Source of the DNA: Haliotis rufescens
Taxonomy: Eukaryota
Direction of reading: 5' to 3'
Assembly: GCF_023055435.1 (NCBI RefSeq)
Contig: NW_025963780.1
Location: 21,452,001 to 21,516,000, forward strand
DNA: 64,000 bases
Shown here: positions 12,801 to 59,900 of the stretch, piece after piece
How positions within the stretch are numbered: position 1 is the first letter of the stretch
Layout of the letters: every line of letters starts with the position of its first letter
The notes under the pieces: model-generated
Databases searched by the model: none
What the model saw: only the letters and a program-made list of their open reading frames with translations
What the model was told of the DNA's origin: nothing
Made by a program: the position numbers and the translations under genes

Positions 12801-12839
12801 TATTTAAATGTACGTCAGCTTACTTGTGGAATTATGTGT

Positions 12840-13191
12840 ATGTTAGGTATATGTGTAAATATTGTTTTAATTTTGAGTATGTGGGCAAAATGTTGTATTT
12901 GGCGGGAAATTGTCTCCCTTGGCATGACAACATGTGTCATCACTAATGGATAAATTTGTAACAATTTACAATGTGTTATGAGATACCATAGTATCAATAT
13001 ATTCTTTATATAATCTACTTGTGATATGTATGTATTACTGATATAATGTATGGCCGTTTCTATTCTGTTGTAATTGTTTCAGGGCCAAATTTTCCATTTC
13101 TCCATTTCGTTATTTCTACGTTTATTCATCTGAATAAAACCGATCACAACCTCACAACCAGTCATGTCTTGGTGTCTAACCAGCTGTAACA
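12840..13191 (+). mobile_element. Displaced 3' portion of the Gypsy LTR (ends TGTAACA, followed by TSD GTAA)
   Basis: Highly similar to 15716-16057 of the 5' LTR; followed by gtaa and the satellite in register. Confidence 0.9.
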
Positions 13192-15075: not shown

Positions 15076-16057
15076 TGTAGGCGTGACATTTTGAGGGTAT
15101 TTTAATGTCATAATTCGGTTCCTTTGTATATATCTATTTTACAATGATTGGATGTAACATGGTGTTTTATATTTTATGGTTTAAAGGTAAAATAAGAATA
15201 AAAATAATGTATAAGTCATAAAAAGGTTGTTAAAAATATTGATGGTTGGTGGCAGTATTCTAATGTTTGTGGTTTTAAGTGAATGTCAATTAGATTGACA
15301 TTTGGTTTTGTTTATCTCTTAGTTCCTATGAATTTCATTTATCTGAATGGTTATGACATCAGAGTTATGTAAAGTATAATGCTGGATCAAGGGTATTGCC
15401 TCATTTTGGATCCAGGATGAAAGTTGTTTATCACCTGACCCTAATTCTTAACTTCTCATCTGTGAATTTAAAAAACTAAGAAAGTCTTCTTTGCACCAAT
15501 CTAACCAACTCACAATCACAGCACCGCACAGGCAACAGCAAGGTGGCAGTAGGATTTAACAGGTCAGTTAAATACTTAAACACTAAATTATGTTTAGATT
15601 TATTATGTCTTTTACATGTTCATTTAGTATGTTGTTTCATAGAAATTAATGTCATTTTGTATCTTGTTAAAAATGATAAGGTTAAAAAAAGGTATTTAAG
15701 TATCTAAAGTATCTGATGTTAGGTATATGTGTAAATATTGTTTTAATTTTGAGTATGTGGGCAAAATGTTGTATTTGGCGGGAAATTGTCTCCCTTGGCA
15801 TGACAACATGTGTCATCACTAATGGATAAACTTGTAACAATTTACAATGTGTTATGAGATCAATATATTCTTTATATAAGCTACTTGTGATATGTATGTA
15901 TAACTGATATAATGTATGGCCGTTTCTATTCTGTTGTAATTGTTTCAGGGCCAAATTTTCCATTTCTCCATTTCGTCATTTCTACGTTTATTCATCTGAA
16001 TAAAACCGATCACAACCCCACAGCGAGTCATGTCTTGGCGTCTAACCAGCTGTAACA
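15076..16057 (+). repeat. Gypsy 5' LTR (982 bp)
   Basis: Starts TGTAGG and ends TAACA; matches 27999-28648 plus 12840-13191. Confidence 0.93.
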
Positions 16058-16059
16058 TT

Positions 16060-16077
16060 TGGAGCCCCCAGTGAGGA
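16060..16077 (+). promoter_or_regulatory. Primer-binding site, probably tRNA-Thr
   Basis: TGGAGCCCCCAGTGAGGA lies 2 nt after the LTR; TGG pairs with tRNA CCA; from memory it resembles the complement of tRNA-Thr(TGT) 3' ends. Confidence 0.75.
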
Positions 16078-17333
16078 ATTATTCAGATAGGATCTTCACT
16101 TGATGGTGACTTGAAGTTGATCTGATGTTGACCGGAAGTTGATCTGATGTTGACCGGATGTTGATCTGATGGTGACCGGAAGTTGACTTGTTTACATCCT
16201 GTTATCTGCCTTGCTGTGAGTTACATGTCTTTGCCTTGTGACATCTATTTTGCCTGTTTTAATTAGCTGCTGTGATAATGCTTCTTTGCTGAACTCACCA
16301 TGAACACTGGATCTATAGATTGTTTATACAATCATGTGAACATTTTACAGCATTGAACTTTTAATGTACAGCAGGGATCCAGTGAACATTACAGATTGAC
16401 ATGGTGTATTGGACATTTACTGAATCTGTGATATTTTATATTGTCTGACTTTTATATATACTTACGTGTATCTGAACACTGTGATATTTGTGTATATACG
16501 GGTTGCGAAACAAAAATGAATTTAGTAGTTGCCCGGATTGACCTCTTATTGCCCATTTTATAGGCTCATTTTTTGCCTTTGTTATGTGTGGTATGCATAT
16601 GGTTACATTGTGACATGTGTGATTGAATGATGAATTTGGTCACTAGTACATTGTATGTAGTCCCTGTGTTGTGTTAGGTCTTAGTCAGTTATTTAGTTAC
16701 AGATAGGTACACTTTAATTACCCTTTAATTAGTATATCAAAACAAACTTGGTTTTATATTAACTAAATTACCTAAATAGTACTTAGTCAATTTAATTATT
16801 TATTCAATCTCAACTAGGTAATAATACAGTTTATGTTCAGACTACCTCAGATGAAAAGATTAACAAACAATGATGTTTTGTGGGATATAATGGGCAGAGT
16901 GTGGATGATGCAGTCGGGGGCGATAAGCAAGGTCCTACCGCGGACTAGAAATCGCATACAGACCCTATCGCGGGTCAAGTTGTCCCTCCACCGTGCTTGG
17001 CAGACAGGACCCACAGCAAAGATACTGTCACTCCCCCCGCGGAAACAGCGGGCAGAAGAATTTGGGCTCCCGCTGTAATTAGCAGGCAACCAGAGTATCA
17101 TACACCCACCAGCATGGTGTTAAACCAAATCCCCCGACTGCACCATGCCAAACAGCGGGGTGCAAAATGTATAAATACACTATGCACACCGCTGACATCC
17201 ACACATTATATTAAATTTGGATTAAATTATGATGTGGAAGGGAGATGGGGAGTGGATAAGGGACTGGGAAGGAAAAGAAAATTATGCGCCTCCCCCCAAA
17301 GTGAAGTTATACATACTTACCCGAACGGTACCT

Positions 17334-17866
17334 TTACTCATCACTAAACAATGTCCTGCGTACATTTGATTTAAAATGGGCCATGCCCGACCGGTTTAAA
17401 TGAACTCCCCGAGGAGTATAAAATGGAGCATCATGTTTGATCTGAGGGTGGGTATACCTTAGACCCCCCTCTTCCCTGATCACTCCCGCAATCCGCCTAT
17501 TAAGCGATTTTCTTTTCAGTTCAATCCTTTTAACATGGCTGGCTCCTCGCCAGGTTTGTCGAGGCAACATGTCAGACCATACCAATTTGGTATTCGGGAG
17601 TTTAAGCTGAGCGTATGTTATGTCCAGATACATGTTGTCGTAAAGTTCCTTTGTCCCCTTTGTACACAGATCGTTTGATCCAAGGTGGATAACCAGAAAC
17701 TTCGGCTGGGGATGGCGGGCAACAAGTGTATCCACTGCCTTGCGGAATTCCCCCCACTTCATTCCGCCCTTTGCATGCCAGCGGGTACCCGTCAGTAGGG
17801 AGTCCGATGTAGTGGCCAGATGGTCGTGGAATCGGACCATATAACTGGACCCGATACACCATACAT
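17334..17866 (-). CDS. SGNH/GDSL-like hydrolase of Ngaro copy 1 (probably a spliced exon)
   Basis: Blocks VWCIGSS, KGG, HLGSND and RGVHL; the catalytic GSS lies upstream of the first in-frame Met (17840), directly after a tttcag acceptor. Confidence 0.8.
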
Positions 17867-17972
17867 CTGAAACTTAAAACACACTAGCAGCATCTTTGTT
17901 ATAATAACATCTGCTTTAAACTTACCTATTAATTTATTGATGGTATTTATTGATGGTATTTATTGATGGTAT

Positions 17973-18007
<35 letters not shown>

Positions 18008-18120
18008 TTCTGTATATTATTAGAGTTAGTGAAAAAGTGCGTATTATCCCGTTACCCCCGTGGAAACGCAACAGGCAGGAACGGGTGGTGAGTCTGTGTT
18101 TGTTTCTGCTAGGTATACTG

Positions 18121-19050
18121 CTAAGTGGTGAGTTGAGTAATGCGGATATATTTGCTGTAACAGTTTGATTTCCAACGCCCATATTCCTGAATCTGCTTGG
18201 AACTAACCCGATTAATTGCTGCTGTGGTAGCCGCTCCAATGCGAAAAGAGTGTGACGAAAACAAATGAAGATTGAGGTGTGGTAAGGAAAATGACAGGGC
18301 CTTTCTTTACATTGACTGAAATTGGAATCTAGTTAAAGGACGTCCATCAAAATGGACGAACATATGACCGTGCACTGGTGGTCTGATGGAAAGAAACTGT
18401 TGCATTGCTCTGACAGGACACAGTCTAGAGTGAGGGATAGCTGTTATTTTTATTTGCACACCTCTGCCGCCCTGATCCGTTTTGGATGAGCGTAAACATA
18501 TCGTTATGTGACTTATATCTGCTGCCACATGAATATCAGACAAAAGACACGCCCTATGCGAGAAATCCTTGCCTGACCCTGCCACCAGCTCACTGATTCT
18601 AAAAAATCCAAAAAATGCAAGCAGGTATGCAGCTGTGAAAAGAGACGTTTCGTAAGTTGAAGCACAAACTACCGGTAATGCTGTCACAATAACAGACAAT
18701 AAGTCAACTGTAATTGGGAGTCGAGTGTCAGCCTTCTGTTTCTGTCTGACAAATCCAATCAAGGCTTTCTGAATAAGAAAATGGGATGTTAGGTCATGCA
18801 TACCATGTACCTTTTGCCATGTTGTTAATGCTGATATATACGACTTTGCCGTGCGAGGAGATTTTCCTGTTAAGGAGAGATGAGCGATAAAATGCATAAG
18901 GTGATCAACCGGGGCGGGCCAAATGTGTGGCAGGCTGAAAGAGATGCGGAAAACATTAAATGCCTTTTGTGCAGACTCATACAGGTTCCATGTGTTGAGT
19001 GCTAGAGAAGACTGCACTAGACGTTGCACCTCTGTCGTCAGATCTGCCAT
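18121..19050 (-). CDS. Tyrosine recombinase of Ngaro copy 1, one in-frame stop (18307-18309)
   Basis: FFGFFRISEL and SKTDQ, then past the TAA in the same frame [14 protein letters not shown] and KYIR (R-K-H-R-W-Y catalytic set). Confidence 0.9.
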
Positions 19051-20960
19051 ATGTCCTGTGGTATGTGTGCTGGTATCTCGTCTGCCCGCGGTGCTGCTTC
19101 TTTGAACCTGGACCACTGAAATCTCGAAAGTGCATCAGCTATAACGTTTGCATGCGTAGGAATATACGATGCTTTGAACAAGATATTATGTTGTAAACAG
19201 AGGAGTATCAGGCGCCTAAGCAACGACATAACTCGTGGTGGTTTAGCTGTTTGTTTATTGATAATTGCTACCACTGCTTGGTTGTCACAAACAAACAACA
19301 CTCGCTTGTTTCGTAGATGTCTACCCCACAGTCTTACTGCCAGTACAATTGGAAAAAGCTCTAGCATAGTGATGTCCTTAGTCCATCCATTCTGCACCCA
19401 CTCGTTAGGCCATCTGCCATTGGCCCATCTACCCATGAAAAAGGCTCCGAAACCATGGTTACCTGACGCGTCGGTAAACAAATGTGTATCCGATGAATTG
19501 ATCCACTCTGAATCTATAAATGCAGTAGTGCCATTGTGGTTTTGAAGAAATTGCCGCCATAAATTGAGGTCCTCGCGTATGCCTTGTGTTATCCTTATTC
19601 TGTGGTGAGGTTTTGACCCTCCGCGCTGTGCGTCAATGAGGCGTCTTAAAAAGGCGCGACCAATCGGAATTGCCCTACATACAAAGTTAAGTTTCCCCAC
19701 CAAGGACTGCAAGTAGTGTAATGTTGTTTTCTTCTTAAAAGGTGATAAAAGAGTATCTATTTCCTGAGTAAGCGGCACTACCTTATCCATCGGTATGCTA
19801 ATTTGCGCTTTGACTGTGTCTATTGTGATACCCAGGAACGTCATGTTTGTTGTAGGTATAACCGTTTTGTCCTTTGCGACGGGAACACCCATGTTTTGTA
19901 ATAACTCCAGGGAGGACTCGAGAGTTTGTTGACACTTATTAGAGGCTAGTGCTGCCAATGCAAAATCATCCAAATAGTGTTGTATGTTATCATTTTTGGT
20001 GTATTTCCTGAGTACCCACTGCAAAAATGTGCTAAATTTTTCAAATGTTGCACATGATATGGAACAGCCAAATGGAAGACATTTGTCAAAGTAGATATTA
20101 TGTTTGAATTGTATTCCCAGAAATTTAAAGTCATCTGGTCGTATAGGTATGAGGCGAAATGCAGACTTAATATCAAATTTTGCCATGTATGCACCCTTGC
20201 CTAATCCTTGTATCGCGGATAGCACCTGGTCAAAGCTAGTGCACTTGACTGTTGACACCTCGTGAGATATGTAGTCGTTTACAGACTCTCCCTCAGGGTA
20301 TGACAGATGGTGAATAAGTCTGAACGTTTGCTGAACTTGTTGATTATTGTGATTTGACTTCTTCGGAACGAGACCGATTGGAGAAACTATCATATCTTGA
20401 AATGGTGGTGCTGTAAATGGACCTGCAATTCTACCTAGATCAACTTCTTTTTGTAGCATTGTTGCCACCATGTTTGGATGTTGTTGGGCGGATTTTAAAT
20501 TGTAAGCCATTCTAGGACCCGGTGGACCCGTGTACTGTAGTGGAAAACCTTGAGAAAAACCTTCCGATAAAAACATAGCATCTGATGCGTAGAAGGGGGT
20601 GTAAATACTGAGCCAATGTGACAATACACGCATACTAATGGGTGTTGGTGCTAGGCCTTGAGTTGGTATTGTTTGCGTTGGGTTTTGTTTGAGTACGGGG
20701 GGTTGTAACGCCCCCTTTTTGACGAAAGCATGTGTGTGCGTCGTGTGCAGTGCTGTCACATGTGATGCATTTGTGTGCATATCGGCAGAAAGACCTTGTA
20801 CATCCGAATTTGTTAAAATCCCAGCAAAACTTTGGGATGCTACCTGTATTTTCGCTACCCGCGTTGAGATTGCTGCGGTTGGTGGTAGTGGTGTTGTTTG
20901 TGACGCGCGCGTGTGCCGCTTGTTGATTTGGAAGCATATGTTGTAACCATAAATGGCCAT
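19038..20960 (-). CDS. Reverse transcriptase-RNase H of Ngaro copy 1 (intact ORF; true start uncertain)
   Basis: [35 protein letters not shown]; RNase H FTDASG, LELFPI, CDNQAVV, ADALSR. Confidence 0.95.
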   Translation of the reverse strand: MAIYGYNICFQINKRHTRASQTTPLPPTAAISTRVAKIQVASQSFAGILTNSDVQGLSADMHTNASHVTALHTTHTHAFVKKGALQPPVLKQNPTQTIPTQGLAPTPISMRVLSHWLSIYTPFYASDAMFLSEGFSQGFPLQYTGPPGPRMAYNLKSAQQHPNMVATMLQKEVDLGRIAGPFTAPPFQDMIVSPIGLVPKKSNHNNQQVQQTFRLIHHLSYPEGESVNDYISHEVSTVKCTSFDQVLSAIQGLGKGAYMAKFDIKSAFRLIPIRPDDFKFLGIQFKHNIYFDKCLPFGCSISCATFEKFSTFLQWVLRKYTKNDNIQHYLDDFALAALASNKCQQTLESSLELLQNMGVPVAKDKTVIPTTNMTFLGITIDTVKAQISIPMDKVVPLTQEIDTLLSPFKKKTTLHYLQSLVGKLNFVCRAIPIGRAFLRRLIDAQRGGSKPHHRIRITQGIREDLNLWRQFLQNHNGTTAFIDSEWINSSDTHLFTDASGNHGFGAFFMGRWANGRWPNEWVQNGWTKDITMLELFPIVLAVRLWGRHLRNKRVLFVCDNQAVVAIINKQTAKPPRVMSLLRRLILLCLQHNILFKASYIPTHANVIADALSRFQWSRFKEAAPRADEIPAHIPQDIWQI

Positions 20961-21744
20961 CTATTGCCCACCAGGAGCGAGACGGGTCGCGCTGCATCCT
21001 TTGTCTGAAACTACGGTCATATTGCAACCATGAATCTCCGCCGAACCTAATAGCAGCTCCCCTGATTGTTTCGATGTAGGTAAGCAGATCCTGTATCTTA
21101 TCCGGGTGTTTTTCTATGTATACACTCATGTAGACGTTAAACGCCGATGTCCATGCGCCAATGCCTAATGGACGCGTTTGTTGTTGTTTGGGTTTAAAAA
21201 TAATCTGACCTGTGGCGTCGAGTGCCAATGTAAATGCCGACATCTCTTGGGGTGTCTGATTTTGGGCTGCTATGAGTTGTTTTAGCTCAATGAATTCGCC
21301 GTTGTGTATTTTTTCCCGTAGTTGTTGGGAAACATGTGATCCGATGTGTTCCGCTCTGACGTTTAACTGTAGACAGGGTGTATTCGTCGCGGGTATGCCA
21401 AACATGGTTGGATCGTTTAAATTCATAGTTGCGAAAGGATTGAGTGTTTGTGTTTGTTGTTGGGACGGATGCGTGTTATGTGCGTTTTCGCGTGCTAATG
21501 TACTAATGTTTATGTGCCCTTCATTGTTTGAAGACCTATCCCCAGTCGGCATCTGCGTGTCCCCGTTTGTGAGCGTGCTGTTTGCAAGCATTGCCGTATT
21601 TGTAGGAAGCACTGTGGTAGCCGAGTTTGCATTATGCAAAATATTGCTCGAATTAATACAAGAGGTGAAATGCAAACCGCCGGACGCGTTGTGTTGTGTT
21701 GTTAGAATGACTTGACAGTTGGGGAGTAAAAGTAGTGACGTCAC
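20635..21744 (-). CDS. Gag-like ORF1 of Ngaro copy 1 (5' end possibly deleted)
   Basis: KIHNGEFIELKQL, WTSAFNVY, WLQYDRSFR, and a C-terminal Cys/His cluster CWDFNKFGC..C..HKC..C..H....C; homologous to 52219-53307. Confidence 0.85.
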   Translation of the reverse strand: MTSLLLLPNCQVILTTQHNASGGLHFTSCINSSNILHNANSATTVLPTNTAMLANSTLTNGDTQMPTGDRSSNNEGHINISTLARENAHNTHPSQQQTQTLNPFATMNLNDPTMFGIPATNTPCLQLNVRAEHIGSHVSQQLREKIHNGEFIELKQLIAAQNQTPQEMSAFTLALDATGQIIFKPKQQQTRPLGIGAWTSAFNVYMSVYIEKHPDKIQDLLTYIETIRGAAIRFGGDSWLQYDRSFRQRMQRDPSRSWWAIDGHLWLQHMLPNQQAAHARVTNNTTTTNRSNLNAGSENTGSIPKFCWDFNKFGCTRSFCRYAHKCITCDSTAHDAHTCFRQKGGVTTPRTQTKPNANNTNSRPSTNTH

Positions 21745-22199
21745 GAGACCACGTGTAGTGACGTCATGGGAGAAATGACGTATGTTGCCATGGGGAGTAT
21801 TTTTGCGGGTCTTGTGAGAGGAGAATGTTTGTAAACAAATGGTGGAAAATGATAAATGGGAATAGTTACTAGTATTGGTTATGCGGAGCTGACCATAAAC
21901 CGATTTAGCTAAATAATGCTAAATCATATTAGTTTCAAGGCACCCAATATTATACTTGTTGTTGCCCGTGTACTCTTCTTGTTTAGGCACTCATCACTCA
22001 ACTAACCCTTTAGTTGGTACAGTACCTCTACTAAGTTTTAAGTTAACTCCCCTGCAGCATTTGTTCTGCTTTGTAGACGGCTTTTAGTGGTGTTTGGATT
22101 AGTGTACTGGTACTTAGTTTTGTAGTTGGGCAGTTAGGTCTATAAGCCAAGGAGGGATTTGCAGGTATCAAAGAGGAGGAGCAACCAGGGTCTGATATC

Positions 22200-23430
22200 A
22201 TGCCAGCCTTAGAGTCAGATGTAGGCGATCTTAGTCTCACTGGACTTAGTGATACTTTGAAGCAGATGGGTGTAGTACCTGTGGAAGATAGCCCTGAGCA
22301 TTTTCAGGATTGGATGGTTTCCTATTTGCAGTCGGTAGGGTAGTTGCCCGGTGGTATCTTGGCTGATTCTGAAGGTACATGGGGTAACAAAGGCTCTGTG
22401 GTTACTCAGGCTTTTCAATCAGATGCTAAACCATTAGAGAGTAAAGGTCCTCAGTTTACTCCTGTTACTCAGACAGACCTTAATAAAACTGTAGTCACCT
22501 TAAGTCAGACTCCTAAGTTGTCATCTTTCTTTGGTGAAGCTAGTAAGGGTGAGGCTTCTTATGATTTATGGCGCTATGAGGTAGAGTGTCTCTTGGCTGA
22601 GAGTGCTTATCCTAAGCATGTCATATTTGAGGCTGTTAGGCGCTCTCTGAAGGGTAAAGCTGGTAAAGCTGCTTCACTTTTAGGTCCGCAGTCTACCCTT
22701 GATTCCGTGTTAGCTAAACTTACAAGTGTTTATGGCAGCTGTGAGGAAAGTGAATCCCTGATTGCAAGGTTTTATAGTGCCAAACAGACGGCAGAAGAAG
22801 ATGTTTCTTCTTGGGGTTGCAGACTTGAAGATCTATATGCTAAGGCTAGACAGAGTAGTAAGTCATCACCTAGTGAGACTAACCAAGCCCTCAGGAGTGT
22901 TTTCTGGCAATGTCTTAAACCAAATTTGAAGGATGTATCTGGCCACAAGTACGATGCTATTGAGGACTTTGATAAGTTGCGTGTAGCGATTAGAAGGATT
23001 GAATTTGAGTTGAATCAGAGGAAGCCCCTAGAGTCTTCAAAGAAGCCAATTCCCTCTAAAATGGCTGCTAAATCTGACAGTGATTACCAGGAATTGAAGG
23101 GTATGGTTCAACAATTAACAGCAGAGTTTGGTGCCATTAAAAGGCAATTAGCTGACATTCCCACTCTCACTCCCACTCCCACGCCATCTCCTTCAGGATC
23201 TAGAGGAAGAGGCCGATCTGATCGTGGCTCATTTTCTATTCGTGGCAGATCTAATATGTCGCATTGGAACAATAATGGACGGGGTCAGTTCAGCGCTAGA
23301 GGTCATCCTACATATGGTCCTTCACACTTACCTTATCAGGGAGCTGTTCCTCCAGATGGTAGGCAGGGTATTGTCTGTTAGAAATGTGGACAGATAGGTC
23401 ATTTGTGGCGTGGATGTAGGGTTATCATGG
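22200..23430 (+). pseudogene. Gypsy gag (PNMA-like capsid plus CCHC knuckle), with nonsense mutations
   Basis: ATG 22200 is in frame with ORF 22344-23381, with a stop at 22341; the zinc knuckle C*KCGQIGHLWRGC is interrupted by TAG at 23379. Confidence 0.85.
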
Positions 23431-23437
23431 ACAACAA

Positions 23438-26400
23438 ATGGTCTTTAAACATGCACGGGCCCATGGAGACAGGCGATTCATGGGCCAATCCACAAGCAAA
23501 CCAGAGACAACGCCTACCACAACTCCAGAAGGATTGATCGGGAAAGCAAATGAAGCCAGTGTCACAGTGGGAGGTAAAGTATGCACAGCTTTACTTGATA
23601 CAGGTTCCACAGTGTCTACTGTTAGTGAATCATTCTACAGGCATCAATTATCTCATCTTCCAATGCATCAACTTGACCGTATTTTGGACATAGAGTGCGC
23701 AGATGGTGGAACATTGCCATACCTAGGGTATATTGAGAGTGAGTTGTTAGCCCCAGGCCTTGAATCAATGGACACTTTGCCTTGTTTACTACTAGTTGTT
23801 GCAGACAGTAGGTATAACTTGTCAGTGCCAATCTTGCTGGGTACTAATATCTTGTCATCTTTGATGGAAAGATGTAAGGCAACAGTGGGTACTAGATTTC
23901 TTCAGAAAACATCACTTCATACCCCATGGTATTTGACATTTAGGAATATGGTCATTAGTGAGAAGGAGTTAGCGAAGAATGATTGGAGGTTAGGACTTGT
24001 CAAGAATATTGAAGACAGGAACATAGTTATTCCACCAAATCCACAAGTCATTATCCAGGGTTATGTTGACAAGGAAATCAGTTATCCTCAAGCTCTTGGT
24101 ACACTACAGTCATGTCAGAGTTCAACTATTCCATCAGACATAGATGTTTCTCCTTCACTTATGTTGTACAAGTATAGGAAGCAGGATCCAATCCAGGTAC
24201 ACTTGTCAAATGTTACCACTCGTACTGTTGTTATTCCACCCAAGCTGTACTCTGTGAAATTCAACCAGTATCTGTAGAAGAGTCCAAGCTGAGTCAGTCA
24301 TCCAATACTGAATCTATTTTGAGCCTTATTGATGTCAATGATAAAGGACTTACCCCCGAAGAACTAGATAAAGGTGTTAAACTTATCTCAAAGTACATTG
24401 ATGTCTTTTCAAGTGGGGAATTAGATCTTGGTCATTCAACTGCAGTACAACTCCTTTTAAACAAAGGCATCGATGTATTCCCCCAGCCATGTTTCAAGAG
24501 GTAAAAGATCATCTTAGACAGTTGCTAGCATGTGGAGTTATACGTAGATCACATAGTCCTTGGGCTTCTAACATTGTCCTGTGTAGGAAGAAGAATGGAA
24601 AACTTAGAATGTGCGTGGACTTCAGACAACTAAACAATTCCACTATTAAGGATAGAGGAAATTTTAGATTGTCTAGCTGGCAGTAAGTTTTACTCTAAGT
24701 TGGACATGAAGTCTGGATATTACCAAGTCGAACTTGCAGAAGAACATAAGGAGCGCACTGCTTTTACAGTTGGCCCTTTAGGTTTCTTTGAGTATAATAG
24801 GCTTCCGTTTGGACTTTGCGACAGTCCGGCGACATTTCAGGGTCTCATGCAAGATTGTCTTGGAGATTTGCCTTTATCAATCAGTGTGATATACATTGAT
24901 GATCTTATCATATTTGCTGATAGCTATGAGGAACACTTCGAACGTCTCACCAAAGTTTTTGACCGCCTGCGCCAATGCAACTGAAAACTGGCTCCAGATA
25001 AGTGTGAATTCTTCAAAGAGAAAGTTGCCTATGTTGGACACGTCATTTCCAAGGACGGAGTTGAACCAGATCCTACAAAAGTAGAAGCCATCAGAAATTG
25101 ACCACGGCCTACCAACCCTTTTGATGTAAGGAAGTTTTTAGGTTTTGCAGGATACTACAGACGGTTTGTAGAGAATTTCTCCAAGATATCTAAGCCTCTA
25201 TCCCAAATAATGCCTAGCCCGAACGACAAGAAAGGAAAATCTACAGTGAACTAGTTTTGGGGAGATCCTCAGGAAGCAGCATTCCAGGAGTTGAAGGATA
25301 GACTTTCATCGCCGCCAGTACTAGGTTACTGTGATTACTCAATCCCATTTGAACTCCATACCGATGCCAGTCAATGTGGCCTAGGTGCTGTACTATACCA
25401 GAATCAAGGCGGGAAGCAGAGAGTCATTGCCTATGCCAGCCGAGGATTGTCAAAGTCAGAGCAGAACTACTCAGCCCACAAACTGGAATTTCTTGCATTG
25501 AAATGGTCAATCACTGAGAAGTTCCATGATTACCTCTTTGGCAATCAATTCACTGCATATACAGATAACAACCCACTGACATATATTCTGACTACCGCAA
25601 AGTTCGACGCAACTGGCCACAGATGGCTAGCTGCCTTGTCAGCTTACAATTTTGATGTCAAATACCGACCTGGAAAATCGAATATTGATGCAGATGTGCT
25701 GTCGCGGATTCCAGGAGATCATACAACAGAGCCTGCAGATAATCAGATTTCCTCAGAATCTGTCAAGGCTATCTGTCAGTCTGTTTCTGCACCCAATTAT
25801 GTTGAGTGTTTAAGCATGTGCTCGGAGTTGGTAGATGTTCTGATACAGGCCATGACCTGAAGAGCTTGTCTCCAAAGGATTGAAGACGTGAACAGTCTTG
25901 TGATCCGACACTTGCAGATGTCATCAAATGGGTCAGAACAGGACAAAAGCCAAGACATGATTACATGCAATCCAGTGAATTTACATCCCTTTCTCGCAGA
26001 TTTGACAACCTTAAACTCAAGCAAGGTGTGTTATACAGAGTGACTACCATGGATGATGAACTTGCAGAACAGTTGGTACTTCCTTATCATCTCCGTGCTC
26101 AAGTTCTTAAGAGTCTTCATGACGATATTGGTCATTTAGGACGGGATAGAACATTGGCTTTGGTAAGAGAGCGATTCTACTGGCCTGGAATGGCAAGTCA
26201 AGTTGAGAAGTGGGTGAAGGAATGCCAGAGATGTTTACGCCGAAAGTCAGCAACAAATACCAGAGCTCCCTTCGTGAATATCGAGACCACATATCCATTG
26301 GAGTTAGTTGCTATGGACTTTATTACCTTGGAACCTTCGAAGGGGAACTATCAGCATATCCTTGTAATTACTGATCACTTCACTTAGTATTCTCAGGCTG

Positions 26401-27959
26401 TTCCAACAAGAAATATGACAGCCCGTACGACAGCAGAAGCATTTCTTAACCACTTCGTAGTCCATTATGGTTTACCAGCCCGAATCCATTCAGACCAAGG
26501 TGCAAACTTCGAAAGTCGTCTGATTGAGGAGCTGTGTACAATTACCGGAATGAAGAAGTCGAGGACAACACCGTACCATCCTATGGGTAACGGCCAGACA
26601 GAGCGCTTCAACAGAACACTTTTGAACATGCTTGGCACACTTGAACCTGATCAAAAGAAGGATTGGAAGATGCATGTTTCTCCTCTAGTTTATGCCTACA
26701 ACTGTACCAAACATGAAACTACTGGTCATTCTCCCTTTTATTTAATGTTTGGACGTCATCCAAGATTGCCGATAGACCTTGCATTTGGAATTGACAGAGA
26801 CCATGCCAACCAGTCGTTACAATCATACACAAAGTCTCTGCGTGACAGACTAAAGAAATCATATGAATTGGCCTCTAACATCACCAGGAAGTCTAAAAGA
26901 AAGCAAAAGCAGAACTATGATCAGCGACCAAGAGGAGAAGCGGTCCATGTTGGTGATAGAGTACTGGTAAAAGCTCTTGCCTTCGAAGGTAAACATAAAC
27001 TAGCAGACCGGTGGGAGGATGATGCATATATTGTCAAAGGACACCCAAACCCCACTATACCCGAGTTTGTAGTGGAACCAGAGAATGGAGATGGTCGAAT
27101 AAGAACTTTGCATGGGAATCATCTCCTCCATATTGGAAGTGTTGCTACGGAAACCGTAAGACCTAAACCAAAACCAAGAAAGAGAACGAGGATTTAAACT
27201 GTGACAAACAAACCAGATGACATACTGGAACAGGATGATGACCATGACAAGGTTATTTTGTCAGTTTCATCTACTCCTCATATTGATTCTGTCTCTTCAG
27301 CCAGTGATACATCCACAGGTAACATGGTTGGTGCTGAAGTTCAACTGACGGAAATGAAGCAACAGGATGAAGGTGATTTAATCCTTGTTGAAGATGTTGT
27401 ACAAGATCGAACTGAGGTAGAAACTGAATCAGTGGAAGTTGACCGTATTGGTGATTCTCCATCAGAATCAGAGTCCACATCGGTCACTAAAGATCAAGAT
27501 GTCATGGATGTTAAGGTCGTTTCGGATCTTGCTAATATCACCCATGTCTCCGATGCTGCCAATGGCATTGCAAAGTATGGTGCTCATGTCACAGATCTTG
27601 CCACTGTCCCGGATGTTGCTGACATAGACCACGTCAGTGATGTTGCAAGTGTCACGAACGTCATGCCAGAAAATCTTGAAACAGAGACTAAAAGTAGTCC
27701 CGAGACATCTGGACTGAACGACGCAAGGACTCGAGCTCCTGTGCAACCTATTCCGCCAGGTCGGCACAGACGATCAGACAGAGTTACAAGGAAACCTGCA
27801 TGGCAAACTAGTGGTGAGTTTGTAATGTCACAAATAGGTCGACCACCAGACTGGCTGGAGAAAGCAAGATTTCTAGAACATCTGGCAACCAGTGGAACTT
27901 TTGACACATTGCCTTCTAAGGTATCAGATGTTCTATTATCCGTCATCAAAGATAAATGA
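23438..27959 (+). pseudogene. Gypsy pol (protease-RT-RNaseH-integrase plus acidic tail), fragmented
   Basis: LLDTGS; SPWASNIV, RMCVDFR, LPFGL, YIDD; HTDAS, TDNNPL; HDDIGH..CQRC, MDF, SDQG, ERFNRTL; multiple stops and frameshifts. Confidence 0.93.
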
Positions 27960-27986
27960 TAGATGACGGGGACTTCATTTATTGAT

Positions 27987-27996
27987 AGGGGGGTAG
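27987..27996 (+). promoter_or_regulatory. Polypurine tract
   Basis: aggggggtag lies immediately before the 3' LTR. Confidence 0.75.
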
Positions 27997-27998
27997 TG

Positions 27999-28648
27999 CG
28001 TAGCCGTGACATTTTGAGGGTATTTTAATGTCATAATTCGGTTCCTTTGTATATATCTATTTTACAATGGTTGGATGTAACATGGTGTTTTATATTTTAT
28101 GGTTTAAAGGTAAAATAAGAATAAAAATAATGTATAAGTCATAAAATGGTTGTAACAAATATTGATGGTTGGTGGCAGTATTCTAATGTTTGTGGTTTTA
28201 AGTGAATGTCAATTAGATTGACATTTGGTTTTGTTTATCTCTTAGTTCCTATGAATTTCATTTATCTGAATGGTTATGACATCAGAGTTATGTAAAGTAT
28301 AATGCTGGATCAAGAGTATTGCCTCATTCTGGATCCAGGATGAAAGTTGTTTATCACCTGACCCTAATTCTTAACTTCTCATTGGCTAATGTAAAAAACT
28401 AAGATAGTCTTCTTTGCACCAATCTAACCAACTCACAATCACAGCACCGCACAGGCAACAGCAAGGTGGCAGTAGGATTTAACAGGTCAGTTAAATACTT
28501 AAACACTAAATTATGTTTAGATTTATTATGTCTTTTACATGTTCATTAAGTATGTTGTTTCTTAGAAATTAATGTCATTTTGTATCTTGTTAAAAATGAT
28601 AAGGTTAAAAAAGGTATTTAATTATAAGTATCTAAAGTACCCGATGTT
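27999..28648 (+). repeat. Gypsy 3' LTR, 5' two-thirds only
   Basis: Matches 15076-15720 with scattered substitutions; stops at ATGTT. Confidence 0.92.
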
Positions 28649-28655
28649 TTGTCAA

Positions 28656-29122: not shown

Positions 29123-29129
29123 CCTTTCG

Positions 29130-50900: not shown

Positions 50901-53900
50901 TTCCCCTCCTTTCATCTTGCATTTCTATAAAGTCCCCTTGCGATGATATATGATTGGATTTCTTCAGAACCACCAATTATGTCATCAATAATAAATCGCA
51001 ATTTGATCAAAGGTTCATCTATGTTCTGACAATTTATGCTTGTAACTATGTCAGTAAATATTGCTTGAAGTCGCATTTAGAAGTATTGCAGCAAATTGCA
51101 GGTGACAATTACGTTGCCAGTTTTGAAACTACATGTATCAACATGACTTATCATGTAGGAATTTTACATGTGTAAATTGATGTTGCAATGTACAAACTAT
51201 ATATTGGCCTTCGTACAAATGAACTTTGACCTTGACTTTGAATTCTTCAAAGACGCTACATTCCAACTCCTCAAGGGCCTTGAACCTGGCAAAAAGTACA
51301 AGGTCATGGTCACAGCAGACTATGGGGACATCAAGAGTAAACCTAGAAATGCCTCTTTTACAATGGGTAAGTCAAATGTTGTGCATGTCAGTTATATTTG
51401 ACATAAAGTTATATATTGCTTTACAAATTACACACTTTTGGATATCATATTAATTATTCAAATAACTTCTTTACTAATTATCTTCACAGCTTTTTCAGGG
51501 GACACCTCAGGTTTAGGTGCTGGAGACATAGCGGGTATGGTTGTAGGTAGGTGTAATGTTTTTCATTCATTAGAAGTCTAAGTCCCTAGGAATATCGAAT
51601 ATCAGTTCATCCGTTTTGTCGATATTAATATTGTGACGAGTAGAATTATGCCAGGACTATAAAGTAAAAAAAAGAAGTCTAAATGATATGTCGAGTCAAA
51701 AGATTTCGAGTTTACGAGGTTAACCTGCATCCTGTTAGTTGTTTTAAGAAATTACATTTAGTACTAACTACTAAATGACTTTATCGCGCGTATCAAAACC
51801 ATTGGCTAATTACGTCCGTAACACAATCACCCCTCGTAACTCAATCACCCCCGGTCACCACTCTGCACCGTGCCAGGGGAATATTCCCGCGCGAGCATCA
51901 TCCCGCCTTTTGTTAGTCCATCATTCGCGGACATTCCTTCTTCAAGTACACACGCGTTCACTGTATCTAATCGCTTTCGCTTTGTACGTTTCCTTTGTAC
52001 CCAGTCGCGACCGTTTTGCCGATTACGCTTTGAATACCATCTATTCAAACACTCGCCAAATCGCATTTACACAATCGCGACCGTTTCGTCGATTACGCTT
52101 TGAATACCACCTATTTCAGCACTCGCCGTATCGCATTTATTCCGTTCTACTCCCGAACTTCATCCTCGGGACATTTTTACACTTGTGGAGTACCAACTAA
52201 CCACCTCGACCTTTCGTGATGCCTCCCAAGAGAAGAGCAGCCGTCAACCACAAGCTTGTGAGGGGAGCCAAGCAGGCCAGGACAACCAGAAGACAAACCT
52301 CGGGAGTACACATTATGCAGGAGGCAACAGCTGATGGTGAGTCTTCCAATTACGGAAATATCCAAGGTGGCAACAGAATTAACGTGCAATCGGCGCAGCT
52401 TGTAAATGCCGCGCAGGCTGCCAACTCGGCTACCCAGGTAAACGAGCAACTGGAAAAAATACTCCAGTTGCTGGAACATTCAGCGCCCAGCCCGGTTAGC
52501 GCAAACCAACAGGTAAGGCTTGGTTTTAGTTCTCACGCCATTTCGCCCAACATAGGGAGAATCCCCGATGCGCACAACGAGGCCGACGGTGACGCGGCTT
52601 GGCCAGCCAATCAGAACGCAGGATACGGGGATTCCCTATCCTTCCGTGCGGATGGAATAGACGCGCACGTCAAACAACAGGTGAGGGAAAAATTCTGGCG
52701 TGGCGAGTTTGTCGACCTCGGCACAATCCTACCAAACACCTAGGGAAGTCACAAGGACGGTACGATTACCATGGCGTACGACTCCTCAGGTAAGATAATT
52801 TTTAAACCAATAAAGCAGCAACCAAAGCGCCTGTACCTGGCAAGCTGGACTTCAGCTTTCCACATTTTCATGTATATCTATGTTAGTAGGCACTCCGAGG
52901 TCCGCACAACCCAGGGGTTGCTGTCCTACATGGAAACCATAAGAACGGCGGCTCTTCGATTCGGGTGGGAAGCCTGGTCAATCTACGACCAACAATTCCG
53001 ACACAGAATGTCAAGGGACCCCTCACGACGCTGGGACAACATTGACGGGGAGTTGTGGCTGAAGTACATGGTCACACAGCCGGTACGACAACCAGAATCA
53101 GGCGGACGGGGCGCAATGACACGCGTACAGGGGGACATCGCTAGTCAGGTATGCTGGGATTTCAATAAACTTGGTTGTAGCAGGGTCAACTGCAAGTACA
53201 CTCACAAATGCGGTAAGTGTGGCAAACATTCCCACAGCTCTAGGACCTGCTTTCGATGGGAATGGGGTCCAACCGACCCCATACAAGCCCAATCAGCCTT
53301 TCCCTAACAGAAAACCAGCCGTCAAGGCAGGTAATTTCAATGGCCCCTTCCCCCGTGGATCTCAATGAAATAGCACCCTGGTTACGCCAATATGCTAGGG
53401 TCAATTACAGAGATGCAAATTATTTATGGGTAGGTTTTAGCTTTGGCTTTAAGCTCGAGTTCCAGGGCAGCTGCATGGGTCGCCTGGCACGAAACTTGCG
53501 ATCAGCCACGCACCAAGACACGGCATGCTACGTGAAACAAAAACTACAAAAGGAAGTCGACCTTGGCGGGATGGTGGGCCCCTTCAAGGACACCCCCCTG
53601 GACAACCTCCAAGTATCCCCAATAGGCCTGGTGCCCAAGAAGCAGCCAGGCTATGGTCAGCATCTGGGTAAGCATGCGGAGGAATTCCGTCTAATTCACC
53701 ATCTATCCTATCCCAGGGGTAAATCTATAAATGACTTCATAGACACAGAGGCCTGCTCCGTTGTGTATGCCAGATTTGATGAAGCTACGCATATGGTTCA
53801 ACAACTGGGAAAGGAAGCACTACTAGCAAAATTCGACATTCAGTCGGCCTTTAGAATTATACCAGTCCACCCATCCGATTTCGAGCTACTAGGCATCAGA

Positions 53901-56900
53901 TTCGAAGGTGAGTTCTATTTCGATAAATGCTTACCATTTGGCTGCTCCATATCTTGCGTCATATTTGAAACGTTTAGTACCTTCTTGCAATGGTGCATGC
54001 AATTACATCTTCCAACGTGTCAGATCATGCATTACCTGGATGACTTCCTAACTGGGGGCACAGCAGGCACCAGCTACTGCTCAGACAACCTCAACGGATG
54101 CGTGAATACACTGGAACAGCTTGGGGTCCCTATTGGGCACGACAAGACGGTGGGCCCCACGACCAAACTGACATTCTTAGGGCTGGAAATCGACACCAAT
54201 GCAATGCAGATCAGAATCCCAGAGTCGAAGATCAAGGAGGCGACAAGGGAAATCCAAGACATCCTGTCAACAGGTAACATCAAGGTCACAAAAAGGGCCC
54301 TTCAGTCCCTCATAGGCAAGCTTAACTTTATGTGCAGGGCTATACCAATGGCAAGGGCATTCAGCCGAAGGCTAATCGATCTGCTTAGCAAAGGTAAGCA
54401 ACCATTTCACCATTAGGATTACCAGCTGGGTCAAGGAAGACCTACAAATGTGGTTAACATTTCTTACGAGTTATAACGGCATTTCAGTGTTTCAGGACCA
54501 ACTATGGGTAGACAGCGATTTCCTCCAGCTGTTTTCAGACGCAGCGGGTGGTGCCAGCTTTGGGGCCTACATGCAGGGCAAATGGTTTAACGGCGCATGG
54601 CCAACCCAGTGGGTGACGGATGGAACTACATGGGACTTGACGCTCCTGGAGCTGTTCCCCATCACACTGGCAATCCAACTTTGGGGCAAGCAACTCGCAA
54701 ACAAAAAGGTCCTCTTTTACTGCGACAACCAAGCCGTCTTAGCAATAATCAACAAACAGTCGACCAAGGCCCCCAGAGTGATGAGCCTACTCCGTCGCCT
54801 AATCCTGCAGTGCCTCCGATATAATATTATGTTTAAGGCAAAGTATGTATGTTCCACTGCTAACACTATTGCCGATGCTCTCTCGAGGTTTCAGCTCAAA
54901 TGCTTCCGAGAGGGAGCACCAGCCGCGGACCATAACCCCACACCTATCCTGTGCAACATATGGCGGATCTGAGGCAGGAAGCCGGCAGACTCCTTCAACA
55001 ATCTCTGTCTACAAATACATGGACCACTTACCAAACAGGCATCAATGCCTTGCACCAGTTCCGGTCCACACACCAGCTACAAGAGGTGTGGCCAGTCCGG
55101 CTGGATCAGGTCGTAAACTTTATTGCTTATCTGTCAGTCACTCACCACTCCCCTAACACAGTCAAGACTTACATTCACACCACAAATTCCACGGGCTCAC
55201 CGACTGTACAAACCATTTCCTGGCAGGCAAGATTTTAACAGGCCTACACAAATCAGCGGGCCGACCAGACACCAGAAAACCGATCACTGCAGAACTGCTG
55301 CAGGTAGTAACCAACAATCTGCCTCACGTATGCTCATCAGCATATGAAGCCAGACTGTTCAAGGCAGTCTACTGCACAGCCTTCTTCGGCTTCTTTAGGG
55401 TTAGCGAACTGGTCCAAACTGGACCCTCAAAAACAGGTTGCGCCATCCAGAATTTAAGCTTCTTGGGCAACCCCCAGCAGCTTTCAATCCATTTACCACA
55501 CTCAAAGTCTGATCAGTACAGGATGGGGATAACAGTTACAATGTCATCGATACCAGGTAATCCGCTATGTCCGGTAGTCACCATCAAGCACTCCTTCCGC
55601 ATTGGGGCAGCCACATCAGCAGCCATGAACGGGGTGCCCGAACACCTCATACAACAATACGGCAGGTGGAAATCAGATTGCTACAATGCTCACATACGCT
55701 TACCAACAAATTCAATGTTACACAATTAATTCAAATAGTCTTTCATGGTACTTACTACACTTCTTATTGTTTACAGTTTCGATGGTGGGATCCAGCTACA
55801 TGGCCAGGGCACGGCAGTACTTGCTCCTGAAGGGCACCAGTCCAAACCAACCGAGGATGCTATGGCTGGCACGAGGGGGGATGATGTGGAAGGAGCTGGA
55901 CACCATTCTGGATGCACAGGTCAAGGCGACACGGCGCACCCCTAGAGCCCTAATCATTCACCGGGGCTCCAACGACCTGTGCTCGGTCAAGGGCAGCCAA
56001 CTCTACCTTGACATGGTGGCATCAATCCTTAGGATACAACTCCAGCTTCCTGGCACCAGGATCATTGTATCCTCAATTCTGCCCAGGCGCTACTGGCACG
56101 ATGCCAGGGATCCACTAAAGATCGAGGGGATGCGGAAGAATATCAACCGCTGACTGGCCAACCGAGACAAAGAGCTCGGCGGTACAATGGTGCCACATCC
56201 CCAGATCCTGGCATCAGACAAGACATGGCACCACAGTGACAAAGGATTGTGTGTGTTTACGGACAATTTATTGCATGCCCTGGCGCTTGTTTTGTGCCAG
56301 TAAGGATGTTATCTCCACAGGTTAGTTAGTGTTTCTTTTCAGTACATAGGCAAGCGGGACAAAAATGCTATCTCCACGTATCGCGTGGCCGTGGGTGTGG
56401 GGTAGCACTCTGGTGCTTTGTGGCGGGGTTCTTGTGGGCTACACTGCTAGTGACGAATTAACTTGCTTCCAAATTAATACTCGTGCTTAAGGCTACCTGC
56501 TTTTCAGGGGGAACCTTGTCTTCCCCGACTTTTCCTGCCGGGGAATCGTAAAATAACATACGTTGGGGCAAACAATTGCCACGTATATGGGCCTGGCGGC
56601 GGAAGTCGTCTTGTCAAGCGCTAGCTGACAGTTGGGTCCGCGGCGGTAGTCGCACAATGGTTTTTCTAATGGGGCCAGGCAGTGGAATCGCCGTTGGCCA
56701 CGCTAGTGGCCATTGCAACGGTAGCATTTTGGTATACACAATTAGCAGCTTAGTAGCCCACTAGTACCTGCACACCCTCGGCCTTAAAACCCAATCTCAT
56801 CTTCTGTTTTTATTATAGGCACGGGCATCCACGGCTCGGTGGCCCGTGCCTCTCCTTGGCATATCGTGGGATAATTACATTAAGTACTAACTACTAAATG

Positions 56901-59900
56901 ACTTTATCGCGCGTATCCAAACCATTGGCTAATTACATCCGTAACCCAATCACCCCTCGTAACCCAATCACCCCTCGTAACTCAATCACCCCCGGTCACC
57001 ACTCTGCACCGTGCCAGGGGAATATTCCCGCGCGAGCATCATCCCGCCTTTTGTTAGTCCATCATTCCCTGACAGTCCTTCTTCAAGTACACACGCGTTC
57101 ACTGTATCTAATCGCTTTCCCACCCACCCACGCAGCTTCCCACTCCTTTTCTTTCCTTTTCAGCCTGATGTGTCCTCTTCACCTGGAATGCTAATCACTT
57201 CTTTTCTTCAGCGTTTATTCAATTACAGGTACCAGCAGAGCAGATTGTATATATGTAAATAACCTGTACATATGTAAAATAGGTTTTCAGGGCGCTTGTA
57301 TATATGTACATACCTTTTAAACGATTCTGATATATGTTAAAAAACATGACTTATAAATAGCTGTATATATGTATATATGCGAATACCTGTCTCAACAATA
57401 AACTATGTCGAGGTGTGCGGGGTTCTTGTGGGCTACACTGCTAGTAACGAATTAACTTGCTTCCAAATTAATACTCGTGCTTAAGGCTACCTGCTTTTCA
57501 GCTGGAACCTTTCCGGGGTTACCTGCTTCTCAGTGGGAACCTTGTCTTTCCCGACATTTCAGCCGGGGAATCGTAAAATAACATACGTTGGGGCAAACAA
57601 TTGCCACGTATATGGGCCCGGCGGCGGAAGTCGTCTTGTCAAGCGCTAGATGACAGTTGGGTCCGCGGCGGTAGTCGCACAATGGTTTTGCTAATGGGGC
57701 CAGGCAGTGGGATCTGCTTTGGTCTACTACCTGGGGCCGGGCAGCGGTAGTCTGACTTAGGCCAGCAGTGGGGAGCTGCTTTTGGCAGCGTGGGAGTTGC
57801 CAAGCAATGGTAGGGTTTGAATATGCTACCGTGGGGGCCGGACAGCGGTAGCAGTCTCAGGCCAGCAGCGCTAACTGCGAATCGCCGTTGGCCACGCTAG
57901 TGGCCATTGCAACGGTAGCATTTTGGTATACACAATTAGCAGCTTAGTAGCCCACTGGTACCTGCACCCTCGACCATTTAACCCAATCTCATCTTCTGTT
58001 TTTATTATAGGCACAGGCATCCACGGCTCGGTGGCCTGTGCCTCTCCTTGGCATATCGTGGGATAACTATGTATTATGTTATTTCTATAATATCACAATC
58101 ACGTGGGGATTCCGGATTAGAATGGGATGAGTGAGTAAGTGAGCATGGTTTTCGCCGGTTTTAGCAGTATTCCAGCAAGATATAGGCTTCACACATTGTA
58201 CTCTTGTGGGGAATAAAACCCAGGTCTTCAGCGTGACGAGCGAACGCTTTAACCACTAGGCTACCCAATCGCCCCGGATTAGAATTGGTCCTCTGCAGCC
58301 TGTTGTAAGAGGCGAATAAATAAATCCCTTTTACTGAAATTCCAAAGACACCTTCCTTCAAAGAAAGCCAGACGACTCTTGCAGAAATGTTTTTGGATCA
58401 GAATAAATACCAAGGCCTTAGTAAGCTTTCCCTTGTTGGTATGGTAGACATGTGGAGGACATTTCCAGCTATGACGCATCAATGAATGCACCGTGAATAT
58501 TGGAATATTGCTGACTTCGGCGTTCAACAAAACAATTATGATAGCACTATAAAACTATAATAGGATACTGTAATTATTGCTTTAAAATATCAACACCTCA
58601 AACATGTACGAACCTTGATCATTTTTCTTTTCTTACCATTGGTGATATTAATCCTAGCTGTCCTTGTCATTGGCCTGTTTATGTGGAGGACGGGCAAGAT
58701 GGTGGCGTTGATCAATCGACGTCAGAGCAGACACAAAGGACGTCAGAATCCCAACACTCAGAAAATCTACAATAACCTTCAGAGACCTCGGAAGGGCACA
58801 GTGTCCTATCATGTAGGTTTCTTCAGTCACAGGCATGGACGTTAGACAAACGAATGTTTCACAGGGAGAGTTTGTAAGGTTTAACGCTGTTTGGAAAGTA
58901 TCTCGTACTTACGTTATATCACGTCCAAGATTATTGCACTTATATAGCACGTGCATGCACGTGTGTGTGTGTACGTGTGTGGCTGCTTGTACTAGTCCGG
59001 ACTGATGCCAATTTATAGTGCTAGCACACTGAGATACCATGCTGCAGTTTAACATGAATACCCCACTCAGACACAGTATACTGACTCCGAGCCGACCAGT
59101 CCTTGTTTTAGCCCCTTAGTGCCGAGCGCCAGACAGGGTAACAACAAGTACCATCTTTTAACGTTTTTTGGTATGACGCGGCCGGCCGGGATCGAACCCC
59201 GGACCTTCCGCTCTACCACTAGACCACCACGGAGGCGGTCTCACGTGACTGCTAAATACTGGAAAAGGTGATGTACGTCCCAGACGTTTACCCAAAACAC
59301 GGACATGCTGCTGACAAAATTAGAATAAAAGACAGGCAAATCTGGGATTCGAACCTATGGCCAGCAGTAAAACGACTCATGACAGGATGTGGTTAATTCT
59401 AATAGGGAATGTGATTGTAACATTTACAAGTATATAAACCATGACATGAAAGAGCCAAACAGCGGCTGTTTGTCTGGCAGCCATAATCATAGATAATGTA
59501 TCATTATACTCCGACGTGGGACGTTGTTTATTATGTCAATCGCTGGTTTGTCTGGTCCAGACCCAAACAAAGGCTAAACTCGCTTTGTAAAAGAAGGCTG
59601 TGGTCTTAAAACATGGATCCTCGATAGCGAGATGTAACATTCAAATAAGCAATATACTAGCTGAATACAAAAACGGGAACGAACTGCACGTATGTCACCT
59701 ATATTCCATTCATTATGTGTACTATTATGTGTACTATTTATTATGTGTACTGTTATGTGTACTATTTATTATGTGTACTTTAACATTGATGTGTACTATA
59801 TGGTGTACTATTATGTTTACTATTCATTATGTGTACTATTATGTGTACTATTTTTATGTGTACTATCATGTGTATTATTTATTATGTGTACTTTAAATTT

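Follow-up and report, generated by a model that had tools for sequence, protein, structure and literature searches.

How is the SGNH hydrolase ORF expressed that Ngaro retrotransposons can carry beyond their recombinase gene, and what protein does it yield? The question is raised by a stretch of 64,000 nucleotides of the Haliotis rufescens genome (referred to here as the window), in which two retroelements each carry, in the same order, gag, RT/RNase H, a tyrosine recombinase and an SGNH-like ORF. The succession of RT/RNase H and tyrosine recombinase is documented by RVT_1 and RNase H matches, recombinase motifs and tblastn. A hydrolase ORF of Ngaro elements has been described without a proven function in the portions available to us of three earlier sources (bioRxiv 10.1101/2021.08.05.455354, PMC7192593 and PMC6681497).

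The first of the two elements (element 1, about 16850-21900, minus strand) is nested in a Gypsy-type element (15077..28648, plus strand; repeats 15077-15720 and 28000-28648, 96% identical) of opposite strand, at a position upstream of the Gypsy gag frame; the Gypsy terminal repeats are themselves interleaved with a 31/62-nt satellite array (window 12830-16057 and 28000-29930). On the minus strand, element 1 comprises a Gag-like frame (20635..21918, stop to stop, first in-frame ATG at 21591), an RT/RNase H ORF (19038..20960, open from stop to stop; RVT_1 E 1.5e-17) and a tyrosine recombinase ORF (18118..19050) that is interrupted by a stop at 18307-18309, past which the motifs HSFRIGAAT and GRWKS are found. 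No terminal or split direct repeats were found between the ends of element 1, and for this reason it is called Ngaro-like only; their absence might mean that the element is truncated or that it is of a type without repeats, as DIRS-54_XT is. In element 2 (51750-58069, plus strand) the split direct repeats follow the Ngaro layout, A1...B1-A2-B2, with A1 at 51750..51978 (90% identical to A2) and the remaining repeats within 56423..58069 (B1 56423-56877, A2 56873-57119, B2 57417-58069). The recombinase is broken in both elements. They represent different families, and an origin as copies of one element was ruled out, their SGNH proteins being only 41% identical. In gene order, including the SGNH ORF past the recombinase, both resemble the Xenopus Ngaro elements DIRS-53_XT and DIRS-54_XT, and the likeness to that group extends to the split direct repeats of element 2 and to the lack of a methyltransferase after RNase H in the RT ORF of element 1, where no Pfam match to such a domain was obtained at E 0.05. 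Element 2 lies in sense just 3' of host exons of a probable receptor gene (window 51240-51546, plus strand), and the host donor at 51546/7 looks by eye to be of phase 1, so that a splice from the host gene to the SGNH ORF would be in frame.

The putative SGNH exon of element 1 (17334..17866, minus strand, phase 1) is open to the stop at 17334-17336 and contains the blocks GSS, GG, GSND and GVH, in which the catalytic Ser (the nucleophile, at 17846-17844), Gly, Asn and His are kept; these four are invariant or nearly so across the SGNH alignment. The usual triad Asp before the catalytic His, which is present in most relatives, is replaced by Arg in element 1 and in the database protein P0001. 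The match of element 1 to PF13472 (E 2.3e-4, 22.2 bits) falls under the curated cut-off of 32.9, and a profile of the SGNH family finds as its best match among solved structures the esterase of the ZfL2-1 ORF1p (PDB 4c1b, E 3.6e-14), as well as a match to PAF-AH. The corresponding exon of element 2 (55777..56304, plus strand, phase 1) contains a stop at 56151-56153 that is missing from most contigs of its family, one of which has 18 additional nucleotides near 56228. A HMMER search gave 2372 relatives at E 0.001; 150 of these are listed, one being the protein P0012 discussed below.

The earlier note on this DNA had claimed that a 3' splice site in the same phase stands just before the GSS motif in both elements, and this is what we find. 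On the minus strand, element 1 reads gttttaagtttcag up to the end of the predicted intron and ATGTATGGTGTATCGGGTCCAGT from the first exon base, 17866; on the plus strand, element 2 reads cttattgtttacag followed by TTTCGATGGTGGGATCCAGC from the first exon base, 55777. Each site is a T-rich YAG at the boundary of the SGNH domain and of phase 1, with 14 nt between acceptor and the Gly of GSS in element 1 (site 17867..17886, a T-rich tract plus CAG; 7.4 bits, own-locus p 0.015) and 11 nt in element 2 (site 55757..55776; 9.6 bits, own-locus p 0.012). The splice matrices are built from generic frequencies, so that all scores are approximate; acceptor scores use the intron side only, and the own-locus p comes from a sliding-window null on the same locus. 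By this approximate matrix the acceptors rank 7th of 257 AG in element 1 and 10th of 354 AG in element 2. Taken alone, then, the two are only moderately unusual, good within their own elements and not the best, and the 9.6 bits of element 2 equal the score of a host acceptor at 51489 for which two sequencing runs (X2 and X7) show splicing. The note's further claim, that in element 1 the first in-frame Met comes after the nucleophile Ser, is borne out by the position of the ATG at 17840, two codons past that Ser, and upstream the SGNH frame of this element extends no farther than a stop 7 codons above the Gly. The note had made no mention of two ATGs in the SGNH frame of element 2, which stand 2 and 34 codons above the Gly.

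Sites of such rank might be explained trivially, the AG being a by-product of a T-rich spacer followed by codons that start with G (Val, Asp, Gly) at the beginning of the domain. Codons of this kind do favour an AG in phase 1, and other acceptors in the two window elements score higher than these sites. A comparison across families bears on this explanation. Scans with the SGNH alignment yielded 3 loci from genome bins and 34 from metagenomes, the latter through a single scan with one peptide motif, so that only proteins containing it are sampled. In 31 of these 37 loci the GxS start could be placed, for five of them by hand, and the six loci in which it is missing or broken (L024, L025, L026, L029, L031 and L037) were dropped; together with the two window elements, the 31 form 21 families at 72% DNA identity. 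Two of the loci from bacterial genome bins (L035 and L036) contain gag, RT, recombinase and SGNH sequences of animal Ngaro type together with splice acceptors, and are probably host DNA in the bins.

The earlier note had proposed conservation of the AG and its phase across Ngaro families as a check, and both are kept in 19 of the 21 families, in which the best AG 9-45 nt above the GxS Gly is of phase 1. The proportion is 17 of 19 when the window elements are left out and 14 of 15 among families with a recombinase upstream. The 9-45 nt interval was chosen after viewing the loci, and common descent links the families; the p-values therefore overstate independence, and the binomial value of 8e-8 is to be read as a measure of conservation, probably from one origin. 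The by-product explanation is contradicted by several features of this comparison. With the intron side alone scored, the best AG beats the sliding null of its own locus (p < 0.05) in 17 of the 21 families; the phase stays constant over AG-to-Gly distances of 11 to 41 nt; and acceptors of at least 5 bits occur in phase 0 in no family, in phase 1 in 17 and in phase 2 in one, whereas a control anchor, a conserved Gly inside the exon, gives 3, 1 and 1 for the three phases in the same 21 families, without a phase-1 excess.

It might also be supposed that the SGNH ORF is translated from unspliced RNA, beginning at its own ATG or at a non-AUG codon, or by reinitiation past the stop of the recombinase. 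In PMC9210276 (bioRxiv 2021.08.05.455354), as far as the accessible text goes, the SGNH sequence is treated as a fourth overlapping ORF, and in-frame ATGs do occur on the intron side, above the GxS motif, in 7 of the 21 representatives, element 2 included. Their distances are unrelated, however, in contrast to the conserved phase of the AG, and 11 of the 21 families have no in-frame ATG above the motif at all, one further family having one only at -1. The types that do appear to rely on an ATG, L030 and L032-34, have it 7 codons above the Gly without a phase-1 AG, and they constitute a separate, long-branched side of the SGNH tree. The splice-acceptor rule is therefore not universal, in that these two divergent families use their own ATG. 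In the L032-34 loci, a CCAAT-like motif stands upstream of the SGNH ORF and a recombinase is missing from the vicinity.

Onto the region of element 2 (51000-56870) we mapped contigs from one large run and from three that probably represent RNA. Those of runs X2 and X7 join the host intron 51365 to 51489 (GT..AG), from which it follows that these runs hold spliced RNA. The element 2 family is covered end to end by run contigs; those of X1 and X2 bridge the element 2 acceptor unspliced, at depths of 29 and 64.5, and one X2 contig extends 14 nt past the element 2 donor described below. The unspliced form is plainly present, a point in favor of unspliced expression, and such contigs would fit full-length RNA, intronic RNA or DNA. 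No joint between gag and SGNH was found among the 15 of 86 joints listed, all of them from assembled contigs, which drop rare forms, and three scans of viral contigs found nothing. On balance we consider unspliced expression of the ORF in the main clade to be very unlikely.

Evidence on the 5' partner comes in the first place from element 2 and an annotated protein. The earlier note had named three phase-1 donor candidates in the gag of this element, at 52336/7, 52789/90 and 53212/3; all three exist and all are of phase 1, but only 52336/7 is supported. This donor (ATG/gtgagt, the slash marking the junction) is the first strong one past the gag ATG, and the coding part of the exon that it would close (52219..52336, plus strand) specifies Gag residues 1-39, a basic sequence MPPKRR...ATAD, plus one base. 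We infer a GT-AG intron of 3440 nt (52337..55776, plus strand), comprising the Gag core, RT/RNase H and recombinase, all broken, because P0012, a protein predicted for Haliotis cracherodii in RefSeq under three accessions on three contigs, joins a matching Gag start to a matching SGNH domain. Residues 1-42 of P0012 align to residues 1-39 of the element 2 Gag (60%, E 7e-12), the alignment ending at the codon before the donor; from residue 43 onward P0012 aligns from the acceptor codon (56%), and the two SGNH domains are sisters in the tree (99/98). By these alignments, the predicted protein P0012 is the product expected of 52336 joined to 55777 in the sister family of element 2. With residues 1-42 as the query, a search returned P0012 only and no Gag ORF of its family.

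Predicted RefSeq models with a basic leader ahead of the SGNH domain come from five other mollusc species (P0021, P0032, P0065, P0087 and P0110) and, as a partial sequence, from a sixth (P0141); models with a basic leader of low complexity are found for Haliotis rufescens, Mytilus, Crassostrea, Mercenaria and Saccostrea. A 13-residue cassette directly before the SGNH domain distinguishes two isoforms of Mytilus trossulus. Since a Gag-core profile matches only 2 of 179 proteins, the fusions are without a Gag core, and the later donors at 52789/90 and 53212/3 are therefore unsupported. A shared second intron starting from donors just past the SGNH stop (17320 and 56321) was rejected as a general feature, as these donors are not kept across families. 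Ten further models (P0028, P0031, P0039, P0056, P0068, P0077, P0105, P0111, P0116 and P0118), among them two named frog proteins, share an N-terminal helix-like motif that is followed by a long low-complexity stretch and then the SGNH domain. This motif is likely to be the Gag start of amphibian elements; an Atlas search with the N-terminus of a frog model gave no usable match, and the frog leaders would be identified as Gag by position and likeness only.

The joined form is also encountered as DNA. In two contigs, L028 and L015, the SGNH sequence stands in frame after a basic leader that opens MPGRGR, and the 5' order is TGACGTCA, then a TATA-like box and then, after some 95 nt, an ATG. Their comparison partners are full-length relatives with a recombinase upstream. 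Above the AG, L028 matches L017 and L016 at 10-11 of 46 positions, which is the background level, and below it at 51-53 of 54; L015 matches L022 and L021 at 10-11 of 46 above, again background, and at 51 and 43 of 54 below. Each joined copy breaks within 1-3 nt of the AG of its relatives. L028 and L017 share 1225 nt at 95% up to a common 3' end and then diverge, and the two joined copies belong to different families, each being nested with its full-length kin in the tree. The simplest reading is that L028 and L015 represent spliced RNA that was copied back into DNA with its promoter kept; their first exon is identified as Gag by likeness only. No second copy of the 5' repeat was seen in either. 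Instead of long split repeats, the ends of L028 (1-40 and 1670-1706) have short motifs in common, namely an inverted match of 11 nt and a core resembling TGACGTCA, possibly another terminal design. Unspliced expression of the SGNH ORF leaves joined copies that are broken at the AG unexplained. If the AG were a by-product of base composition, they would have to be chance deletions, and the gene models ab initio joins; given that two separate copies break so close to the AG, we regard that explanation as exceedingly improbable.

A different question is whether the acceptor is always joined to the Gag start. It might be used together with a 5' partner that is often something else, such as a local mini-exon, an exon of the recombinase or a separate leader that starts at a promoter inside the element, so that Gag fusions would arise in some families only. 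Element 1 is one reason for considering this. Its gag lacks an in-frame basic start and, early on, any strong donor of phase 1, the best phase-1 donor (21209, 7.7 bits) being moderate and deep in gag and the others weaker. Two promoter-like TGACGTCA sequences, at 21766 and 21743 on the minus strand, are followed by a first ATG that is out of frame with the Gag core. The locus L003 (190-360) resembles element 1 (window 21766-21632, minus strand) in having two close TGACGTCA and a first ATG out of the Gag-core frame, and six codons past that ATG it has a phase-1 CAG/gtgtct. Element 1 has, on the other hand, a strong local donor that the earlier note did not mention, TAG/gtaagt (17920..17928, minus strand; first intron base 17925), which at 10.9 bits outscores the donor deep in gag and sits 59 nt above the acceptor; the in-frame stops above it argue against a coding mini-exon. 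Between recombinase and SGNH, the same element contains an AATAAA-rich (AATA)n run (17926..18030, minus strand), known from its sequence only, with a branch-point-like CACTAAC before it, a CAG near 18010 and the donor at 17925 after it; if included in a message it brings in-frame stops, and it is possibly a poison exon or a polyadenylation array.

Some database models (P0024, P0047, P0054 and P0074) join parts of the recombinase to the SGNH domain. In the DNA of most loci, stops separate the recombinase and SGNH frames, for which reason these models may be artefacts of prediction. The Gag-like identity of the first exons of L015 and L028 would also leave room for other partners, whereas the leader of P0012 is demonstrably the Gag start of the element 2 lineage. 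We consider it unlikely that partners other than the Gag start are the common case.

The proposal of the earlier note, that a spliced mRNA gives rise to a fusion of the Gag N-terminus with the esterase, is supported by the acceptors of 19 of the 21 families, by the P0012 model and by the joined copies. We are accordingly fairly confident that the main clade of animal Ngaro elements with an esterase carries its SGNH ORF as a last exon of phase 1, which lacks its own start and is spliced to a donor early in gag. That the two decayed copies in the window make such an RNA is inferred, and element 1 might use its gag donor at 21209, the local one at 17925 or another. One promoter in A1 would give rise to both a full-length RNA and a spliced RNA, the former serving as the template for Gag, RT/RNase H and recombinase as well as for copying, and the latter being made by joining the donor early in gag to the acceptor just 3' of the recombinase. 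The predicted product of the spliced RNA would consist of the basic, low-complexity N-terminus of Gag (39 residues in element 2) and the putative esterase, without the Gag core, zinc finger, RT or recombinase, and the split codon would specify the first esterase residue. In the commonest case, with the AG 14 nt above the Gly, the alignment places this codon opposite the residue with which the isolated ZfL2-1 esterase domain begins, as given in the available part of PMC3905857.

The same part of that source reports activity of the ZfL2-1 esterase and its binding to acidic phospholipids, and places the domain after an arginine-rich motif. By analogy, the basic leader of the Ngaro fusion might tie the enzyme to RNA or to a particle, and the esterase might bind or trim membrane lipids during particle assembly or transport; that the fusion helps to attach particles to membranes has, by this analogy, about an even chance of being correct. 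Once spliced, the Ngaro product would resemble the ORF1p esterases of CR1, L2 and RTEX elements (ZfL2-1, PDB 4c1b) in having a basic region followed by an SGNH domain, but the ZfL2-1 protein is encoded by a single unspliced 5' ORF and has a coiled coil, whereas here the two parts would be brought together by splicing across about 3.4 kb. A second parallel is with the LTR retrotransposons, whose ORF3s typically come from spliced messages and include GDSL ORF3s in the rotifer Vesta elements (PMC5408684); DIRS and Ngaro are not mentioned in the portion of that article available to us. As in the spliced ORF3 or env of LTR elements and retroviruses, a 3' accessory ORF would be placed on a spliced subgenomic message, and the features by which env-type splicing is recognized, a 5' donor and a conserved, phase-matched acceptor before the 3' ORF, are both found, the donor in element 2 only. 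Those elements have the LTR order with an integrase, in contrast to the tyrosine recombinase here, and the product predicted here differs from env in that it keeps a basic Gag leader and is not an envelope glycoprotein.

What would be new is the spliced, env-style expression of an already known Ngaro SGNH ORF. In contrast to the ORF reported from amphibians in bioRxiv 10.1101/2021.08.05.455354, in the accessible text of which 'splic' and 'intron' are absent, the sequence described here is a startless phase-1 exon that occurs in molluscs and other animals and would be fused to the N-terminal part of Gag. Neither in full-text literature searches, outside the scope of which two key reviews lay, nor in the parts seen of PMC9341512, PMC4157794, PMC8547959, PMC3783388, PMC7599744 and PMC4021074 did we find a Gag-esterase protein of DIRS or Ngaro elements described as a product of splicing; and no prior account of how the Ngaro hydrolase ORF is expressed was found in the papers covered.

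The SGNH domain of Ngaro type also appears at the ends of host proteins (P0162-P0164, P0194-P0195, P0167, P0169, P0171, P0172 and P0078), which include CIR1 in Mytilus, UEVLD in alligator, cold-shock-domain proteins in fishes and one VGLL4 model; the whole CIR1-SGNH ORF of Mytilus is also found on contigs of 2.2-2.7 kb. From their sequences, these proteins are candidate exon captures. At L006 (4036-4680), a phase-1 acceptor stands where the match to P0072 begins (86% to P0072) and no recombinase is nearby, and this sequence is probably the exon of a host gene and not an element. The texim genes of platyfish were set aside as possible relatives, as the paper that describes them makes, in the part available, no link to DIRS. 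A broader reading, which we put forward tentatively and are slightly inclined to doubt, is that of a two-RNA programme, in which the spliced RNA itself has been copied into L028 and L015 and the exon has been captured repeatedly by CIR1, UEVLD and cold-shock-domain genes; as part of that reading, L028 and L015 would be esterase-only non-autonomous elements made by the element's own machinery.

If splicing of the SGNH exon to the start of gag is confirmed, the real protein would be a Gag leader plus an esterase and not the bare ORF, and both the junction to look for and a fusion whose expression, localisation and activity are directly testable would be defined. Env-style subgenomic splicing would then extend to the tyrosine-recombinase retrotransposons, and the layout of the product would converge on that of the CR1/L2 ORF1p esterases. 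Splicing of this kind would also account for many SGNH gene models of molluscs, frogs and lizards that are labelled 'uncharacterized', and would suggest a route by which the SGNH domain is captured by hosts.
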